Notes: a model not told the origin generated them from the sequence alone. A DNA stretch of 7,929 nt from a virus (IMGVR_UViG_2690316273_000016); one strand, 5' to 3'; counted from the stretch's first letter, positions 2,230 to 7,929 are shown. A program made the numbers and translations.

Positions 2230-2409
2230 TTATTCCTGCTCTTTGGCCTTGCGACGCTGGCGGTATTCAACTTCTCGCTTTAATGCTGCTGTTACAAACT
2301 GCCCTGTACTTTCACCAGGCATTTTTACCGCCTCAACATTGTTCATAACTTCATGCGGAACCCTTGCCGCAACTGTTTGTGATTTTGCGTTTACTGCTTT
2401 TGTTGCCAT
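2230..2409 (-). CDS. Small putative DNA-binding regulator (59 aa), possibly ribbon-helix-helix; repressor-like
   Basis: Absent from the ORF track (below 60 aa). Hand translation of the minus strand from ATG (complement of 2407-2409) to TAA (complement of 2230-2232): MATKAVNAKSQTVAARVPHEVMNNVEAVKMPGESTGQFVTAALKREVEYRQRRKAKEQE. SD AAGGGG sits 8 nt upstream. Putative strand-helix-GxS/T turn-helix layout is reminiscent of Arc/CopG RHH proteins. Divergent from a promoter region with three palindromic operators. Confidence 0.5.
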   Translation of the reverse strand: MATKAVNAKSQTVAARVPHEVMNNVEAVKMPGESTGQFVTAALKREVEYRQRRKAKEQE

Positions 2410-2438
2410 GTTGTGTACCCCTTACAAAAAACAAATGC

Positions 2439-2511
2439 AGTATGCAGGAAAAAAAATAAGTGTTCAACACTTGACGTGTTTAACACCAGAGCTTAAATTG
2501 GTGTTCAACAC
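2439..2511. promoter_or_regulatory. Divergent promoter/operator switch: three palindromic operators GTGTT(C/T)AACAC over back-to-back sigma70-like promoters
   Basis: Operators at 2460-2470 (GTGTTCAACAC), 2476-2486 (GTGTTTAACAC) and 2501-2511 (GTGTTCAACAC, flanked g…c). Rightward promoter: -35 TTGACG 2471-2476, 17-bp spacer, -10 TAAATT 2494-2499. Leftward promoter on the minus strand: -35 TTGAAC (complement of 2462-2467), 17-bp spacer, -10 CATACT (complement of 2439-2444). Operators overlap both -35 elements and the rightward start site. Confidence 0.55.
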
Positions 2512-2608
2512 CTTGCTGATGCAAGGTGCAGAAACGACGAAACCCGGCAGTGCGCTAACACTAACCGGGCTTCTAACCACCAACGATAGAAAGCGTATCG
2601 AGGTAGCT

Positions 2609-2812
2609 ATGAGAAATTATACCAGACACCCGCAAGGGCGGGACTCGTACAACCTGAATAAATACATCTGGCGTTTTATCGCCCTGAGCACGGCACAACC
2701 GCGCGTGATTACCATTGAGGCCACCAGCGAACAGGAAGCGCGTCAGCAATCTCCTGATGGCTGCGTGATGGTATTCGCTGCCCGTATTCGCCAGGGGGAA
2801 CACCATGATTAA
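2609..2812 (+). CDS. Hypothetical small protein (67 aa), first gene of the rightward replication operon
   Basis: ATG at 2609 with GAGG 5-6 nt upstream; stop TAA 2810-2812 overlaps the next start (ATGATTAA). It is the only protein-like part of the 373-aa stop-free frame. An in-frame ATG at 2519 is possible but lacks an SD. Confidence 0.55.
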   Translation: MRNYTRHPQGRDSYNLNKYIWRFIALSTAQPRVITIEATSEQEARQQSPDGCVMVFAARIRQGEHHD

Positions 2813-3014
2813 CCTGTCACTTACCGACCTTAACCGCGTTCAGTTTCGTGAGAAATTTACCGGGCAGCTACTGGTCAATGTGGATAAAGGTCGCGTGGTG
2901 TGTAATTACCACCTGCCAGATGAAGCCATTGTCGCAACAAGGGAATCATTACAGGAACTCGCAGAACGTGCCGGAATGATTAATGCGAATATTCAGGGGG
3001 TGAGACATGCATAA
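2805..3014 (+). CDS. Hypothetical small protein (69 aa), paralog of the next gene
   Basis: ATG 2805 preceded by GGGG; stop overlaps the next start. Shares a motif block with the downstream ORF (TGQLLVNVDKGRVVCNYHL versus TGRVLVYLEKGRVKCQCRL). Confidence 0.65.
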   Translation: MINLSLTDLNRVQFREKFTGQLLVNVDKGRVVCNYHLPDEAIVATRESLQELAERAGMINANIQGVRHA

Positions 3015-3219
3015 TCATGAATCGCACTTACCTGTAGTGCTGAATGTGCCGTCAGATTATACGGGGCGCGTACTGGTGTATCTGGAAAAAGGCCGGGTTA
3101 AATGTCAGTGCCGTTTAATGGAAAACGAATTTATCAGCACTCTTGCGGGATTTTCTGAAATGCTCACTAAATCGGGTGTTAGTGCAGACCAGCTACGCGG
3201 GGGCGATTATGCGAAATAA
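3007..3219 (+). CDS. Hypothetical small protein (70 aa), paralog of the previous gene
   Basis: ATG 3007 six nt after GGGGG; overlaps the previous stop (ATGcaTAA). Shares the TG--LV---KGRV-C block with 2805-3014. Confidence 0.65.
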   Translation: MHNHESHLPVVLNVPSDYTGRVLVYLEKGRVKCQCRLMENEFISTLAGFSEMLTKSGVSADQLRGGDYAK

Positions 3220-3427
3220 ACATGATATTGAAGACCTGGCATTTGAAGCCCTGCACTCTGCGAAAAAAATCAGGGAAGTCGTCAATATGTGGATGAACAG
3301 CCTTAGCACCGATAAATCCGATAGCAGAGAAGAAATTCTTATTTCTTTGTTGTTAGACCTGGCAAATACACAGGTTTCTCTGACATCTGATATTGAGCTC
3401 GCCGCTAAAAAGCTGCCTCTGGAGTAA
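3209..3427 (+). CDS. Hypothetical small protein (72 aa)
   Basis: The track frame opens at 3143, but the ATG at 3209 follows a G-rich SD (gggggcgatt) and overlaps the upstream stop (TAA 3217-3219), matching the coupling seen elsewhere in this operon. Stop TAA 3425-3427. Confidence 0.5.
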   Translation: MRNKHDIEDLAFEALHSAKKIREVVNMWMNSLSTDKSDSREEILISLLLDLANTQVSLTSDIELAAKKLPLE

Positions 3428-3433
3428 AAAAAC

Positions 3434-3721
3434 ATGAAAAAGAAAAATTCTGGCTTTACTGCCAGCGGCCCCGCTCGGCCTGAAATCCGCCCCGGCGATA
3501 TTTTCCGGGATAACTATGGCGGCACGGTAACGATAAAAGGCGTGGCAGAACGGCGCATCACTTACCGCCGTGATGGCTACGAATATGACTGCGTGATGCC
3601 TGTTTATCAGTTCCGGCGTGATTTCACGCTGGTGGGCCATCGTAAAGCCGTAAATCAGAAACGTGCAGCAAGTCATATCCGCAAAATTCGTGAAATGCTG
3701 GTCGCAGGGGGTAAAAAATGA
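3434..3721 (+). CDS. Hypothetical basic protein (95 aa)
   Basis: ATG 3434 with GGAG 9 nt upstream; stop TGA 3719-3721 overlaps the primase ATG at 3718 (ATGA). Protein-like composition, basic C-terminus. Confidence 0.6.
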   Translation: MKKKNSGFTASGPARPEIRPGDIFRDNYGGTVTIKGVAERRITYRRDGYEYDCVMPVYQFRRDFTLVGHRKAVNQKRAASHIRKIREMLVAGGKK

Positions 3722-5532
3722 AACTGGCACCGAACGTAAAACAGCAGTCACGCGGCATAAAACACAAAGAAACAGAAGTCATTATTTTTGCGGGTAGTGA
3801 TGCCTGGTCACACGCAAAACAATGGCAGGAACATGACGCGCGTATGGCCGGAGATAATGAGCCTCCTGTGTGGCTTGGGGAGCAGCAGTTATCCGAACTG
3901 GATAAGCTGCAAATTGTGCCGGAAGGCAGAAAATCCGTGCGCATATTCAGGGCCGGATATCTTGCGCCAGTAATGATAAAGGCGATTGGTCAGAAGCTGG
4001 CGGCGGCAGGCGTACAGGATGCAAATTTTTATCCTGAGGGTATGCACGGTCAGGAGGTGCAGAACTGGCGCGGATATCTGGCCCGTGAGCGCCAGAATCT
4101 TTCTGATGGTCTGGTGATTCAGCTTCCTGTTAAGAAAAAAACAGAAGACAGCGCCGCACCACTGGCGCTTAACCAGATGGGAGCAAGCCAGCGCGGCGAA
4201 GTTCTCCTGGCACATTATGGCGGTGAACTGGCGATTCATGCCGACTCTGACACTGTTCACCATTACAACGGCGTTGTATGGGAGCCGATTCAGGATAAAG
4301 AGTTACAGCGTGCTATGGCGCAGATTTTCATTGATGCGGAGATCAGCTATTCGCAGAACGCCATTAAATCGGCGGTCGATACCATGAAGTTAAGTTTGCC
4401 TGTAATGGGGAATACAGCCCGTAACCTGATTGGATTCAGTAACGGGGTATTTGATACCAGAACAGGTAATTTTCGGGAGCATAACAAAAACGACTGGTTG
4501 TTAATTGCCAGTGAATTACCTTTCAGCCCACCAGCAGAGGGGGAAACGCTGGCAACACATGCGCCGAATTTCTGGAAGTGGTTACGCTGCTCGGTGGCAG
4601 AGAATGACCGCAAGACGGATCGCGTGCTGGCTGCATTATTCATGGTGCTGGCGAACCGGTACGACTGGCAGTTATTCATTGAGGTAACAGGTCCAGGGGG
4701 AAGTGGTAAAAGCGTGATGGCGGAGATTTGCACTATGCTGGCGGGTAAGGCCAACACAGTATCGGCAAGCATGAAGGCGCTGGAAGATGCAAGGGAACGC
4801 GCGTTAGTGGTTGGCTTTTCGCTGATTATCATGCCGGATATGACCCGCTACGCTGGTGATGGCGCAGGAATTAAGGCCATTACAGGCGGTGACAAGGTGG
4901 CAATCGACCCGAAGCATAAAGCCCCCTACTCAACACGCATTCAGGCGGTCGTGCTGGCGGTGAACAATAACGCCATGTCATTCAGTGACCGCAGCGGGGG
5001 GATCTCACGTCGTCGGGTGATATTCAATTTTTCGGAGGTTGTACCGGAGAACGAGCGCGACCCCATGCTGGCAGAAAAAATAGAAGGAGAGCTGGCGGTT
5101 GTGATTCGCCATCTGCTTACTCGTTTTTCTGACCAGGACGAAGCTAAACGCCTGCTGTATGAGCAGCAGAAATCAGAAGAAGCTCTGGTGATAAAACGCG
5201 AGGGCGATTCGCTGGTGGACTTCTGTGGCTATCTCATGTCGTCGGTAATGTGTGATGGTCTGTTAGTGGGTAATGCCGAAATTATTCCGTTCAGTCCGCG
5301 CAGGTATCTTTATCACGCCTATCTGGCATATATGAGGGCACACGGATTCGGTAAACCTGTAACACTGACGCGCTTCGGTAAAGATATGCCGGGGGCAATG
5401 GCGGAATATGGCAGGGAGTATATAAAACGGAAAACGAAGCACGGTTTGCGTTCAAATGTGACACTGACAGAGGATTCAGAAGACTGTATGCCATCATGTG
5501 CATCGGTCACAAATGACGACAGCAAAAATTAA
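3718..5532 (+). CDS. P4-family phage/plasmid primase C-terminal domain protein (D5-like SF3 NTPase/helicase); element replication initiator
   Basis: 604-aa ORF. Walker A GPGGSGKS (…FIEVTGPGGSGKSVMAEI…). Flanking blocks (NGVFDTRTGNFREH…, …ITGGDKVAIDPKHKAPYS…, …RRRVIFNFSEVVPENERDPMLAEKI…) match the conserved layout of P4-family primase C-terminal / D5_N-type proteins. SD GGGGG precedes the start. Confidence 0.88.
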   Translation: MKLAPNVKQQSRGIKHKETEVIIFAGSDAWSHAKQWQEHDARMAGDNEPPVWLGEQQLSELDKLQIVPEGRKSVRIFRAGYLAPVMIKAIGQKLAAAGVQDANFYPEGMHGQEVQNWRGYLARERQNLSDGLVIQLPVKKKTEDSAAPLALNQMGASQRGEVLLAHYGGELAIHADSDTVHHYNGVVWEPIQDKELQRAMAQIFIDAEISYSQNAIKSAVDTMKLSLPVMGNTARNLIGFSNGVFDTRTGNFREHNKNDWLLIASELPFSPPAEGETLATHAPNFWKWLRCSVAENDRKTDRVLAALFMVLANRYDWQLFIEVTGPGGSGKSVMAEICTMLAGKANTVSASMKALEDARERALVVGFSLIIMPDMTRYAGDGAGIKAITGGDKVAIDPKHKAPYSTRIQAVVLAVNNNAMSFSDRSGGISRRRVIFNFSEVVPENERDPMLAEKIEGELAVVIRHLLTRFSDQDEAKRLLYEQQKSEEALVIKREGDSLVDFCGYLMSSVMCDGLLVGNAEIIPFSPRRYLYHAYLAYMRAHGFGKPVTLTRFGKDMPGAMAEYGREYIKRKTKHGLRSNVTLTEDSEDCMPSCASVTNDDSKN

Positions 5533-5544
5533 ACTTATGGAATA

Positions 5545-5775
5545 ACTGTTCACCACTGTTCACCCTGTTATAAATATCTTTTATATCAGTACATTATAGG
5601 GTGAACAGTTATTTGTGAACTGTTCACCAAACTATTCACTGTTCACCTTTTTGATTATTTATTGAGCTTTAAGGGTGAACAGTGGTGAACAGTTGGTGAA
5701 TAGTTTTTGTGAAACTGTTCACCCCTTAACATTATGAATAAAAAGGGAAAATCTCAAAAGGTGAACAGGTGAAGG
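5545..5775. repeat. Iteron array in both orientations (CTGTTCACC / GGTGAACAG) with AT-rich spacers; putative replication origin
   Basis: Forward TGTTCACC at 5547-5554, 5557-5564 (two tandem 10-bp ACTGTTCACC units), 5621-5628, 5640-5647, 5716-5723, plus variant CTATTCACT at 5632-5640. Reverse GGTGAACAG at 5600-5608, 5674-5682, 5684-5692, 5760-5768, variant GGTGAATAG at 5695-5703, half-site GTGAAC at 5615-5620. Lies directly 3' of the primase gene. Confidence 0.6.
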
Positions 5776-5819: not shown

Positions 5820-6065
5820 GTGACAACGAAGCACGCAAAAAAACCACAATCTCACGCCCTTGATTTGACAGAACACTGGCTGAGGGTGGCGATAAAAATC
5901 ATCGACCGCAACGCGGGAGAAGGGTACGCAAAAGCACATCCCGAACTGATAAGCGCATTCATGACCACGGCGGCAGCAAACTTTGCCACGCTGACAGAAC
6001 GGGAGATTGCCGAAGCGGAACAGGTGACAACCATCAACGTTAAAACCGGAGAGCAGACAGCATGA
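5820..6065 (+). CDS. Hypothetical protein (81 aa), first gene of the accessory operon
   Basis: GTG start at 5820, GAGGT (5808-5812) 7 nt upstream; stop TGA 6063-6065 overlaps the ssb ATG at 6062 (ATGA). No family recognised by eye. Confidence 0.5.
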   Translation: MTTKHAKKPQSHALDLTEHWLRVAIKIIDRNAGEGYAKAHPELISAFMTTAAANFATLTEREIAEAEQVTTINVKTGEQTA

Positions 6066-6487
6066 CAGCACAGATAGCGGCTTACGGGCGGCTGGTGGCT
6101 GACCCGCAGTTAAAGACCACCAGCAAAGGGACACAAATGGCGATGGCGAGTATGGCGGTTCCCCTGCCGTGCAGCCAGGCAGATGACGGAACGGCGACGA
6201 TGTGGTTATCTGTCCTGGCGTTTGGCAGACAGGCCGACGCACTGGCAAAACACCACAAAGGCGAACTGGTGAGCGTGGCGGGTAACATGCAGGTGAGCCA
6301 GTGGACAGGCCAGAACGGGGAAACGCGGCAGGGCTGGCAGGTTATTGCAGACAGCGTAATCAGTGCGCGAACGGCGCGACCGGGCGGCAAAAAAGGTCAA
6401 CAGGGCCAGGCCACTGACGCACTGAACAGGGCAAAACAACAGACAAGCCAGCACGATGACCCGTACGGGGATAACATACCGTTTTAA
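6062..6487 (+). CDS. ssb: Single-stranded DNA-binding protein (SSB), OB-fold with acidic C-terminal tail
   Basis: 141 aa. N-terminal and core blocks parallel canonical SSB (IAAYGRLVADPQL resembles VILVGNLGQDPEV; MWLSVLAFGRQADALAKHHKGELVSVAGNMQVSQWTGQNGETRQGWQVIADSV resembles the SSB L45/OB core). A low-complexity G/Q-rich linker precedes a C-terminal …DDPYGDNIPF matching the SSB partner-binding tip (D-I-P-F). Confidence 0.85.
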   Translation: MTAQIAAYGRLVADPQLKTTSKGTQMAMASMAVPLPCSQADDGTATMWLSVLAFGRQADALAKHHKGELVSVAGNMQVSQWTGQNGETRQGWQVIADSVISARTARPGGKKGQQGQATDALNRAKQQTSQHDDPYGDNIPF

Positions 6488-6523
6488 TTCACAACAGCGA
6501 ACAGAGTAATTACAGGGGAAGGC

Positions 6524-7054
6524 ATGACAACGCTGACCATTAACCGGAAGCCGAAAGGCATTTACGGCACGCCGCAGAAAACGACGCAGGCGGCGCAAGA
6601 GCAGGATAAAACCACATCGGCGCATAAAGTGATACCCGGCAATCAGAACGCACAGCAGAAGCCCACAGGGGCGACACCGTGGCAGCATATGACCAAAAGG
6701 CAGCGCAAAAACCGCCGACGCGTTAACCGCCTCACTGAGATGTGGCCTGACTTATTCAGCCATAAAGCACCGAAGCCGCTTAAGGTGGGGATATTCGACG
6801 ACCTGATGCAGGATATCGCCGTCAGGGGGCTGGCATTCGGGCCGGGGGTATTACGTGCGACGCTGGCATCCTATGCGCAGTCTCCGCGCTATTACCGCGC
6901 CCTGATAGCTGGTGGCGCACGTTACGATCTGAAAGGCCAGCCATGTGGGGAAGTGACACCACAGGAACAGCAGGAGGCAGAAACACGGCTGATGGTGCTG
7001 AATGAGAAGCACAAGCGCCAGCGCCGGGCAGCAAAGGGGGATACATGCCAGTGA
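6524..7054 (+). CDS. FinO/ProQ-domain protein (putative RNA chaperone)
   Basis: 176 aa. Basic, low-complexity N-terminal half, then a block MWPDLFSHKAPKPLKVGIFDDLMQDIAVRGLAFGPGVLRATLASYAQSPRYYRALIAGGARYDLKGQPCGEVTPQEQQEAE that aligns by eye with the F-plasmid FinO core (WWPGLF…GIRDVLLEDVAQR…[40 protein letters not shown]). Stop overlaps the next ATG. Confidence 0.8.
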   Translation: MTTLTINRKPKGIYGTPQKTTQAAQEQDKTTSAHKVIPGNQNAQQKPTGATPWQHMTKRQRKNRRRVNRLTEMWPDLFSHKAPKPLKVGIFDDLMQDIAVRGLAFGPGVLRATLASYAQSPRYYRALIAGGARYDLKGQPCGEVTPQEQQEAETRLMVLNEKHKRQRRAAKGDTCQ

Positions 7055-7293
7055 CATTTGAAGAAGTTCAGCAACATAAAAAGCTTCATGGTTTTGATGA
7101 TCTGGAAACCACGACAGCAAAAAAATATCGTCGGTTGCTTTCTTCCGATGCGTTATTTTTTGTGGATCATCATGATTTTCTGCGTAGCTCACTGACCGGG
7201 GAAATTTTCGCAACCAACCGTGAGCAGGTGGAAGCGATGATCGAATATTTGTGGAAAATAAGACGCAGAATGCGGGAGCCAGTGAAACAATAA
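7045..7293 (+). CDS. Hypothetical protein (82 aa), last gene of the accessory operon
   Basis: ATG 7045 four nt after GGGGG (7036-7040), overlapping the upstream stop (TGA 7052-7054); stop TAA 7291-7293, followed immediately by an intrinsic terminator. No family recognised. Confidence 0.6.
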   Translation: MPVTFEEVQQHKKLHGFDDLETTTAKKYRRLLSSDALFFVDHHDFLRSSLTGEIFATNREQVEAMIEYLWKIRRRMREPVKQ

Positions 7294-7302
7294 AGCGATA
7301 AA

Positions 7303-7329
7303 GGCCCGGATTTTTTCCGGGCCTTTTTT
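7303..7329 (+). terminator. Rho-independent terminator closing the accessory operon
   Basis: Stem GGCCCGGA (7303-7310) / TCCGGGCC (7316-7323), loop ttttt, then TTTTTT (7324-7329), ten nt after the stop of the last ORF. Confidence 0.75.
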
Positions 7330-7347
7330 CAGGTTTTGTAAATTATT

Positions 7348-7377
7348 TGTTCGTGGTTGTTCCAGGTTGTTCGGTGA
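7348..7377. repeat. Three tandem 10-bp units TTGTTC-N4 (ttgttcgtgg / ttgttccagg / ttgttcggtg), inverted copy of the 1121-1170 array
   Basis: Read directly; its reverse complement (caccgaacaacctggaacaaccacgaacaa) matches 1148-1166. Sits just upstream of a candidate -35 at 7390. Confidence 0.5.
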
Positions 7378-7566: not shown

Positions 7567-7929
7567 ATGAAGAAATTAATCGAACTCCGCCAGCAAAAAA
7601 CCGCCCTGAAAAACCAGATGCGATCCCTGCTGGAAAAAGCCGACAGTGAAAACCGCAGCCTGAACGATGACGAAGGCAAACAGTTTGATGAACTGCGTGC
7701 AAAAGCCGATTCCCTCGACACAGAAATTTCCCGCCTCGAGTCTGTGGCTGATGAAGAACGTAACCAGCCTGGTGTTCCCGTCGAAGATAAAATCACCAAA
7801 AATGAGCTACGCTCTTACATTCTGACCGGGGAAACCCGCAACCTGTCCGGCAGTGTTCCGGCTGATGGTGGTTATACGGTTATCCCGGAACTGAACAGAG
7901 AAATTATGCGTCAGCTTTCTGATGAGTCG
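7567..7929 (+). CDS. HK97-family major capsid protein, N-terminal 121 aa (3'-partial, runs off the window)
   Basis: Not in the ORF track (no stop inside the window). ATG at 7567, open in frame to 7929. Translation: a charged coiled-coil-like N-terminus (MKKLIELRQQKTALKNQMRSLLEKADSENRSLNDDEGKQFDELRAKADSLDTEISRLES…) followed by …PADGGYTVIPELNREIMRQLSDES, matching the characteristic GGYLVP-E---I--L motif near the start of HK97-fold capsid proteins. Confidence 0.7.
   Translation, partial: MKKLIELRQQKTALKNQMRSLLEKADSENRSLNDDEGKQFDELRAKADSLDTEISRLESVADEERNQPGVPVEDKITKNELRSYILTGETRNLSGSVPADGGYTVIPELNREIMRQLSDES

Follow-up and report, generated by a model that had tools for sequence, protein, structure and literature searches.

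We analyzed a stretch of viral DNA, IMGVR_UViG_2690316273_000016, which has a length of 7,929 nucleotides (nt) and is referred to below, in its entirety, as the window. The operon under study lies at 2609-5532. Judged by its sequence, this early/replication operon comes from an E. coli-type capsid-forming phage-inducible chromosomal island (cf-PICI). Its six genes form one co-directional block and are linked mostly by short overlaps of stop and start codons. Our reading, which we consider probable, is that of a cf-PICI replication operon in which ribosomes would reinitiate along the chain of overlaps and an antisense RNA would control entry at gene 1. Pfam, NCBIfam and PHROG domain searches of the window proteins provided the following map of the operon and of the origin next to it.

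2609-2812, plus strand: gene 1, Icd-like protein of 67 amino acids (NF033153, 70.4 bits with a cutoff of 25; phrog_6196, 6e-42)
2805-3014, plus strand: gene 2, 69 amino acids (phrog_340), corresponding to the N-terminal module of fused homologues of 121 amino acids
3007-3219, plus strand: gene 3, 70 amino acids (phrog_340), corresponding to the C-terminal module of the same fused homologues
3209-3427, plus strand: gene 4, 72 amino acids, a rare allele of a family that is always located directly 5′ of DUF4222; weak PHROG matches
3434-3721, plus strand: gene 5, DUF4222 protein of 95 amino acids (PF13973, 89.4 bits with a gathering threshold of 27)
3718-5532, plus strand: gene 6, replication protein of 604 amino acids (D5_N, superfamily 3 (SF3) helicase (DUF5906) and Pox_D5, all above cutoffs)
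5541-5769: replication origin directly 3′ of the replicase gene, with at least ten GGTGAACAG iterons in both orientations

From 5′ to 3′, the order is Icd-like gene, the paralogous genes 2 and 3, gene 4, DUF4222 and the D5/P4-alpha-type helicase, followed by the origin iterons. Rfam matches to microRNA and RUF2 families at 5561-5753 were discarded as artefacts of the iteron palindromes.

A 99.4%-identical copy of the window was found in an E. coli chromosome (locus L001), between allE and allC (approximately 13.9 kb). This locus contains int, alpA and the small-gene/replication operon, followed by genes for capsid, prohead protease, portal, head-tail connector, HNH, TerS and TerL. By definition, a cf-PICI has, within about 10-15 kb, its own capsid and packaging genes and no tail or holin genes (PMC10085698). 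The L001 element has the corresponding gene content (HK97 capsid to TerL) and no tail genes, and the window has the corresponding order of int, AlpA-type regulator, pri-rep and origin. Because the gene content of L001 fits the published definition, the finding concerns a satellite of this kind and, within it, the early/replication operon. Experimental properties of cf-PICIs are that a helper phage induces them and that its tails are used (10.1101/2025.02.11.637232). The genes between alpA and pri-rep are uncharacterized, and a match to 2420-3730 was present in 1,918 of 5,426 complete E. coli genomes, i.e., related modules occur in about one third of them.

Gene 6 is of the P4 alpha type, as it combines an SF3 helicase core with a C-terminal P4-alpha origin-binding domain; its residues 496-588 match the structure of that domain (PDB 1ka8, E 8e-23). 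Residues 1-130 (3718-4110) gave PHROG matches only, with no Pfam domain and no Toprim/primase catalytic motif, and the match to TIGR01613 (96 bits) is below the cutoff of 108.7. Since no primase domain was found and TIGR01613 is below its cutoff, "primase" is only an annotation label for this protein.

An earlier note, made from the sequence of the window, had proposed that the small open reading frames (ORFs) of this operon are real genes. This proposal was confirmed by protein-family matches, by ratios of nonsynonymous to synonymous substitution rates (dN/dS) of 0.16-0.69, and by the Prokaryotic Genome Annotation Pipeline (PGAP), which placed genes at identical positions in near-identical loci of E. 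coli. Family matches of genes 1, 2, 3 and 5 (Pfam, NCBIfam and PHROG) had E-values from 1e-20 to 1e-42. Pairwise dN/dS values against diverged relatives were 0.28-0.69 for gene 1, 0.26-0.53 for gene 2, 0.16 for gene 3, 0.22-0.51 for gene 5 and 0.11-0.22 for gene 6, and these five genes are, by this measure, under purifying selection. For gene 4, 13 homologues were detected, all in E. coli and with 85-100% identity; its identity to gene 3 of L001, which occupies the same slot, is 32%, and PGAP annotated the gene in locus L003. For annotation, the gain is that five small ORFs are confirmed as genes and that their starts are fixed.

Genes 2 and 3 are tandem paralogues (E 5e-9 for gene 3 against gene 2). 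In other islands, a fused protein of 121 amino acids contains a gene 2-like N-terminal module and a gene 3-like C-terminal module (P0144, P0145, P0151 and P0159), and gene 2 is 71% identical to residues 1-62 of P0145. On the evidence of these homologues, gene fission or fusion took place exactly at an 8-nt overlap junction. Because fused homologues exist, the products of genes 2 and 3 would be expected to work together in a 1:1 ratio (the Rosetta-stone argument), and they probably form a heterodimer. The predicted structure of the fused homologue displayed only a repeated strand-strand-helix pattern and, with a mean predicted local distance difference test (pLDDT) score of 50, was unusable for fold search; a PDB sequence search with gene 2 gave no match.

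Gene junctions and translational coupling

All coordinates given in the earlier note were correct when rechecked against the sequence. Its statement that successive genes overlap or abut holds for overlaps of 8, 8, 11 and 4 nt; genes 4 and 5 are separated by a gap and do not overlap. The junctions, together with two located downstream of the origin, are as follows.

2805 (ATG) and 2810-2812 (TAA): genes 1 and 2, 8-nt overlap
3007 (ATG) and 3012-3014 (TAA): genes 2 and 3, 8-nt overlap
3209 (ATG) and 3217-3219 (TAA): genes 3 and 4, 11-nt overlap
3425-3427 (TAA) and 3434 (ATG): genes 4 and 5, 6-nt gap
3718 (ATG) and 3719-3721 (TGA): genes 5 and 6, ATGA, 4-nt overlap
6062 (ATG) and 6063-6065 (TGA): downstream junction, ATGA, 4-nt overlap
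7045 (ATG) and 7052-7054 (TGA): downstream junction, 10-nt overlap

The note had also described a run of G residues before nearly every start, which was an overstatement, as such runs precede only four of the six operon starts, those of genes 2, 3, 4 and 6 (GGGGG at 2794-2798, 2996-3000, 3199-3203 and 3707-3711, ending 5-6 nt 5′ of ATG). At these four genes, the Shine-Dalgarno (SD) sequence is situated within the preceding coding sequence. The SD of gene 1 is GAGG (2600-2603) and that of gene 5 is GGAG (3421-3424, 9 nt upstream). Likewise, the pattern recurs downstream only in part: both 6062 and 7045 are overlaps and GGGGG precedes 7045, whereas 6062 has GGAG and no G-run. The plus strand of the window contains 29 runs of at least four G residues, and such a run ends 3-9 nt before 7 of the 12 gene starts. 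When the 29 runs were placed at random, a mean of 0.30 starts was hit, and 7 was not reached in any of 200,000 trials (p<5e-6). The predicted duplex with the anti-SD sequence at genes 2, 3, 4 and 6 has an energy of -8.6 to -10.7 kcal/mol, whereas ATG/GTG positions throughout the window average -2.7; starts with G-runs rank in the top 0.3-3% of these positions.

Related islands were collected from complete E. coli genomes and approximately 120 IMG/VR contigs. A scan of genome contigs with DUF4222 detected three loci only, and pattern scans of IMG/VR were therefore used. Arrays were built by chaining ORFs 3′ of the conserved leader, a procedure that reproduced PGAP coordinates wherever both were available, and 89 complete, non-identical arrays were obtained. 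Their operons have four to nine genes. One to six small genes were counted per island, and the encoded proteins fall into about eight families that are shuffled among islands and occur in different combinations.

The overlap architecture was kept across all of these arrays. Among their 376 junctions, we observed overlaps of 8 nt (125), 4 nt (94) and 11 nt (46), gaps of at most 7 nt (approximately 91), and a handful of wider spacings, and the type of junction depended on its position. The Icd-like gene overlaps the next gene in 89 of 89 arrays (by 8 nt in 53 and by 11 nt in 28), and 90 of 109 inner junctions are 8- or 11-nt overlaps. The junction into DUF4222 is a gap of 2-7 nt with an A-rich spacer in 83 of 89 arrays. 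From DUF4222 to the replication gene, ATGA is found in 88 of 89 arrays, the single exception being annotated as frameshifted, and it is kept across unrelated replicase types (primase-like, 56; RepA-helicase-like, 15; DUF927-like, 15). In addition, an SD-like purine run was present in 165 of 168 distinct junction sequences. At the same junction sites, GGGGG and GGAGG replace each other, and the C-terminal residues of the upstream protein change accordingly (Q-G versus Q-E). Because the two forms alternate at the same site, selection appears to act on anti-SD pairing and not on the G-run; the G-run as a special signal was rejected, since relatives have GGAGG in place of GGGGG at these junctions. 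Across this island family, the overlap of stop and start with an internal SD is a conserved trait that is specific to the position.

An operon chained by overlaps is, stated as such, an ordinary, textbook layout of phages and satellites. However, specific partnerships between proteins are suggested by the junction pattern, by the split or fused genes 2 and 3 and by the invariant link of DUF4222 to the replicase. DUF4222, which has 332 homologues, is welded by ATGA to whichever replicase type is present, and this suggests that it is a replication accessory factor. In its predicted structure (pLDDT 75), an SH3/KOW-like barrel is followed by a basic helix at the C terminus. A fold search with this model gave best PDB matches with E-values of at least 0.026 and template modeling (TM) scores of about 0.4, from which no function could be assigned, and a PDB sequence search with the protein gave no match.

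A stop codon just downstream of the next start, with an SD between, is the classic arrangement for termination-reinitiation. Since this arrangement is conserved across the island family, it appears to be selected, and translational coupling of the cistrons is plausible. A ribosome ending one cistron would reinitiate at the overlapping start a few nt upstream, held there by the strong SD, and translation, together with protection from Rho, would be passed down the chain. The tightest links would be those between genes 2 and 3 and between DUF4222 and the replicase. In a consensus scan of the plus strand between 2609 and 7300, no terminator comparable to the one at 7301-7330 was detected.

The pattern had been taken in the earlier note to support expression of the small genes in stoichiometric amounts with the primase. 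This claim is not supported, because SD strengths vary (-5.9 to -10.7 kcal/mol), as does the number of small genes between islands (one to six), and coupling alone does not give a 1:1 output with the replicase. Local hints of a fixed ratio are provided by the fused homologues of genes 2 and 3 and by the near-invariant ATGA between DUF4222 and the replicase.

A predicted antisense RNA at the head of the operon

The region upstream of gene 1 and its first codons contain the following predicted features.

2471-2499, plus strand: sigma-70-like promoter TTGACG-17-TAAATT, with a predicted transcription start near 2506
2506-2608, plus strand: 5′ leader of approximately 100 nt, containing the SD of gene 1
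2460-2470, 2476-2486 and 2501-2511: three copies of the near-palindrome GTGTT(C/T)AACAC, which flank or overlap the -35 and -10 of the promoter; candidate operators
2608 to approximately 2530, minus strand: SymR-like cis-antisense RNA of approximately 75 nt, with two hairpins and a U-rich tail, complementary to the SD of gene 1 and the leader
2624-2616, minus strand: extended -10 promoter TGGTATAAT of the antisense RNA, inside codons 3-6 of gene 1
2230-2409, minus strand: divergent gene of the YlcI/YnfO family, 59 amino acids (NF041551, 59.7 bits with a cutoff of 30; phrog_949)

The Rfam model of SymR (RF01809) matched weakly, although over its full length, at 2536-2608 on the minus strand, one base short of the ATG, and was found at the same place in three relatives (L005, L012 and L014; 33.3-35.3 bits). 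The TGGTATAAT element lies 7 nt from an "AG" start, a spacing equal to that of symR in K-12. In 80 distinct sequences, T-15, G-14, T-12, A-11, T-10, A-8 and T-7 were invariant or nearly so. Variation in the antisense promoter was limited to -16, position 4 of the hexamer and the discriminator, and these are non-synonymous changes in gene 1, in which the third positions of codons 2-11 are frozen.

Folding is also specific for the minus strand (-35.1 kcal/mol, z -5.0, versus -20.5 kcal/mol, z -2.1, for the plus strand), because many of the pairs are G.U. Helix 2 occurs in at least seven different sequences, all of which pair. Overall, 99.1% of alignment cells were paired, six pairs had compensatory double changes, and none of 500 shuffles reached the observed values. 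The motif with which the sequences were gathered (alignment A2) dictated the 3′ arm of helix 1, and part of the invariance of this helix is due to that; in an independent set, collected with a coding-region motif, helix 1 changes from CGAUA:UAUCG to CGUUA:UAACG. The antisense RNA carries CCUC, which faces the GAGG SD of gene 1.

A constitutive antisense RNA would mask this SD and control entry to the chain. Because every downstream cistron is chained to gene 1 by overlaps, the RNA would switch the whole operon, and the chained cistrons together with Rho would hold the replication operon off as long as its transcription is not strongly activated. In its full form, this proposal describes an antisense-gated polar operon, in which the RNA blocks the ribosome site of gene 1, the chain stays untranslated and Rho terminates transcription, similar to c4-icd-ant of P1 and as a counterpart to the CI RNA of P4. 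We regard it as possible, with chances somewhat below even. Conservation of the promoter, the strand-specific and G.U-rich fold, the compensatory changes and the SymR geometry argue for such gating, as do the Icd-like first cistron, which is found also in P1, the overlap of gene 1 by gene 2 in every array, and the finding that the array of the relative L005 includes a bona fide C4 RNA together with a1/b1 targets. On the other hand, the gathering threshold of Rfam is about twice the score obtained, the invariance of helix 1 in A2 derives in part from the search motif (although the independent set still compensates), and the antisense transcript might instead represent a second promoter for the YlcI/YnfO gene.

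With the same degree of caution, the predicted antisense RNA might serve as post-transcriptional immunity, or a failsafe, for the replication operon of PICIs and cf-PICIs. It may correspond to a repressor layer, the existence of which in Gram-negative PICIs has been called unclear (PMC6092414). A real antisense RNA would give Gram-negative PICIs a brake on replication at the RNA level, besides activation by AlpA, and would tie PICIs mechanistically to P1, P4 and symE/SymR; the chromosomal symE/SymR would then be a relative of a satellite control module. In the RefSeq relatives examined, no non-coding RNA was annotated at the antisense site, and our literature search yielded no publication that connects SymR with PICIs or satellites. 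Relevant mention in the HE-PICI paper is limited to C4/isrK matches in the "Bro zone".

A separate observation in gene 1 is a conserved hairpin, CCCGC-AAGG-GCGGG, at 2627-2644 (codons 7-12), just upstream of the antisense -10. It is near-invariant in 77 sequences, synonymous sites included.

Alternative explanations and related systems

Several observations count against the combined reading of reinitiation and antisense control. Internal ribosome sites are not sequestered in the predicted mRNA structure (opening-energy percentiles 0.04-0.76), where sequestration was sought as a sign of obligatory coupling and not found; with strong internal SDs and accessible sites, each cistron could initiate alone. 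Genes 4 and 5 are joined by a gap, gene 4 itself is the least supported of the small genes in view of its narrow set of homologues, and overlaps are common in the packaging operon of the island too. At the head of the operon, the sense promoter matches only 9 of 12 consensus positions, and promoter-like matches in the window are no commoner than in shuffles. The RF01809 score of 32.8 bits is far below the gathering score of 61, so the candidate RNA does not count as a curated member of the SymR family. The terminator tail UUUCGUCGUUUCU is imperfect, so that the antisense transcript could read on into the YlcI/YnfO gene. In addition, AlpA is the activator of Gram-negative PICIs (PMC6092414).

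Some of these observations would also be expected if the overlaps reflected compaction only, i.e., size pressure on a packaged element of approximately 14 kb, with independent translation of the genes, no coupling and no fixed stoichiometry. The strength of the SDs (-8.6 to -10.7 kcal/mol) combined with accessible internal sites, the variable and shuffled content of small genes, and the gap at one window junction agree with this explanation, and because the packaging operon of the same island has overlaps as well, a general compaction may be reflected. However, the type of junction is position-specific and conserved, with ATGA in 88 of 89 arrays next to three unrelated replicase types and the Icd-like gene always overlapped. 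The occurrence of genes 2 and 3 as fused homologues also counts against it, and a stop that overlaps an upstream start is a setup for which reinitiation has been demonstrated in other systems. We consider compaction as the only cause unlikely.

It is highly improbable that some of the small ORFs are not genes, or that the true first gene is a 373-amino acid ORF (1691-2812) in frame with gene 1. In favor of this view, the gene 1 frame is open back to 1691, PGAP chose longer Icd-like forms in 3 of 11 loci and few homologues are known for gene 4. However, genes 1, 2, 3 and 5 have family matches and dN/dS below 1. The long ORF was rejected as spurious: it crosses the promoter and covers the conserved YlcI/YnfO gene in antisense orientation, its frame does not stay open upstream in L010 and L013, its 5′ part is classified by PGAP as a pseudogene fragment, and its upstream in-frame starts have no SD.

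The combined reading of reinitiation and antisense entry control can be compared with four known systems. In Gram-negative PICIs and cf-PICIs (EcCICFT073 and EcCIEDL933), the order of int, alpA, replicase and origin is the same, but the published accounts consulted do not describe the small-gene array, the junction pattern, the YlcI/YnfO gene with its operators or the antisense RNA (PMC6092414, PMC10085698).

The left operon of P4 (kil/eta, epsilon, orf151, cnr, alpha and crr/ori) likewise has 8-nt overlaps 5′ of alpha, the C-terminal origin-binding domain of P4 alpha is homologous to that of gene 6, and control at the head of the P4 operon is RNA-based, as proposed here. Unlike P4 alpha, gene 6 has no recognizable P4-type N-terminal primase domain. 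Homology of gene 1 to P4 Eta/"cI" and of DUF4222 to P4 Cnr was not detectable, and CI/seqA (C4/isrK) Rfam families had no match in the window. Moreover, the CI RNA of P4 acts by transcription termination on the sense strand, whereas the candidate described here is a cis-antisense RNA over an SD.

In the immI region of P1/P7 (c4, icd and ant), an Icd-like first cistron is overlapped by the next gene, as here (8 nt). Control of the icd ribosome site by C4 antisense RNA in P1 reaches ant through coupling. The downstream genes of the island operon, unlike those of immI, are not antirepressors, and the candidate RNA, unlike C4, is encoded in cis opposite its target and is not processed from the same transcript. 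The C4 elements RF01695 and RF03163 had no match in the window; both are present in L005. In that locus, a C4 RNA (RF01695, 72.6 bits, above the gathering score) with a1/b1 sites is located at 2924-3128, inside the small-gene array. A second Icd-like ORF follows it, and together they constitute a P1 immI-type module within a PICI operon.

A geometry that matches the prediction is that of symE/SymR in K-12, where a two-hairpin RNA of approximately 77 nt has its promoter in the first codons of the target and covers its SD and start, as predicted here (PMC1891008). Loop sequences of SymR and the candidate RNA are alike (GUGUUAGCGCAC versus GUGUUGGCGCAC). The targets differ, being the Icd-like first cistron of a six-gene operon in the island and the solitary, AbrB-fold SymE in K-12. 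No LexA box was seen in the sequence of the sense operon promoter. On these comparisons, the operon would work like the P4 left and P1 immI operons, but it is a member of neither type and belongs to the cf-PICI replication module.

Other features of the island

TTGAC and the -10 region of the operon promoter are conserved in alignment A1, and a YlcI/YnfO gene is annotated at the matching position in relatives. Its product is a candidate ribbon-helix-helix repressor of the operon promoter. In other islands, different repeats are found by eye at the operator position, alongside different YlcI/YnfO alleles. Because repeats and alleles differ together, cognate repressor-operator pairs are suggested, although physical linkage alone would give the same co-variation. 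On the minus strand, 3′ of the YlcI/YnfO gene, we observed an ORF of 62 amino acids (1999-2187; phrog_21027) and terminator-like hairpins at 1932-1912 and about 1815-1785. The YlcI/YnfO gene and this ORF look like a small divergent two-gene unit that is mostly missed by PGAP.

Additional features of the window are located on both sides of the operon.

1-1074: tyrosine integrase, its 5′ end cut off by the window (domain searches)
1450-1638: AlpA (domain searches)
5820-7293, plus strand: ORF of 81 amino acids, SSB, ProQ/FinO-like protein and ORF of 82 amino acids (PHROG/domain searches), with the overlaps at 6062 and 7045
7301-7330, plus strand: strong intrinsic terminator AAGGCCCGGA-TTTTT-TCCGGGCCTT-TTTT, read from the sequence
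7567-7929: 5′ part of an HK97-type capsid gene, the remainder of which lies beyond the window

A 25-nt inverted repeat, AACAACGTGGAACAACCACGAACAA, occurs at 1142-1166 and 7347-7371, with copies that are 96% identical and 6.2 kb apart (chance expectation, 0.04 matches). It consists of GAACAA units spaced by about 10-11 nt. One copy is situated in the interval between int and alpA, the other between the 7301-7330 terminator and the capsid gene. Each copy might be bound by AlpA or a Xis-type protein.

In L003 (E. coli AST85, 818-10297), a copy of the island is located inside a prophage portal gene, and its small-gene cassette is 99.8% identical to that of the window. The ATGA of DUF4222 leads there into the tail-tip gene gpJ, which replaces the replicase, and the locus looks like a rearranged island copy embedded in a helper.

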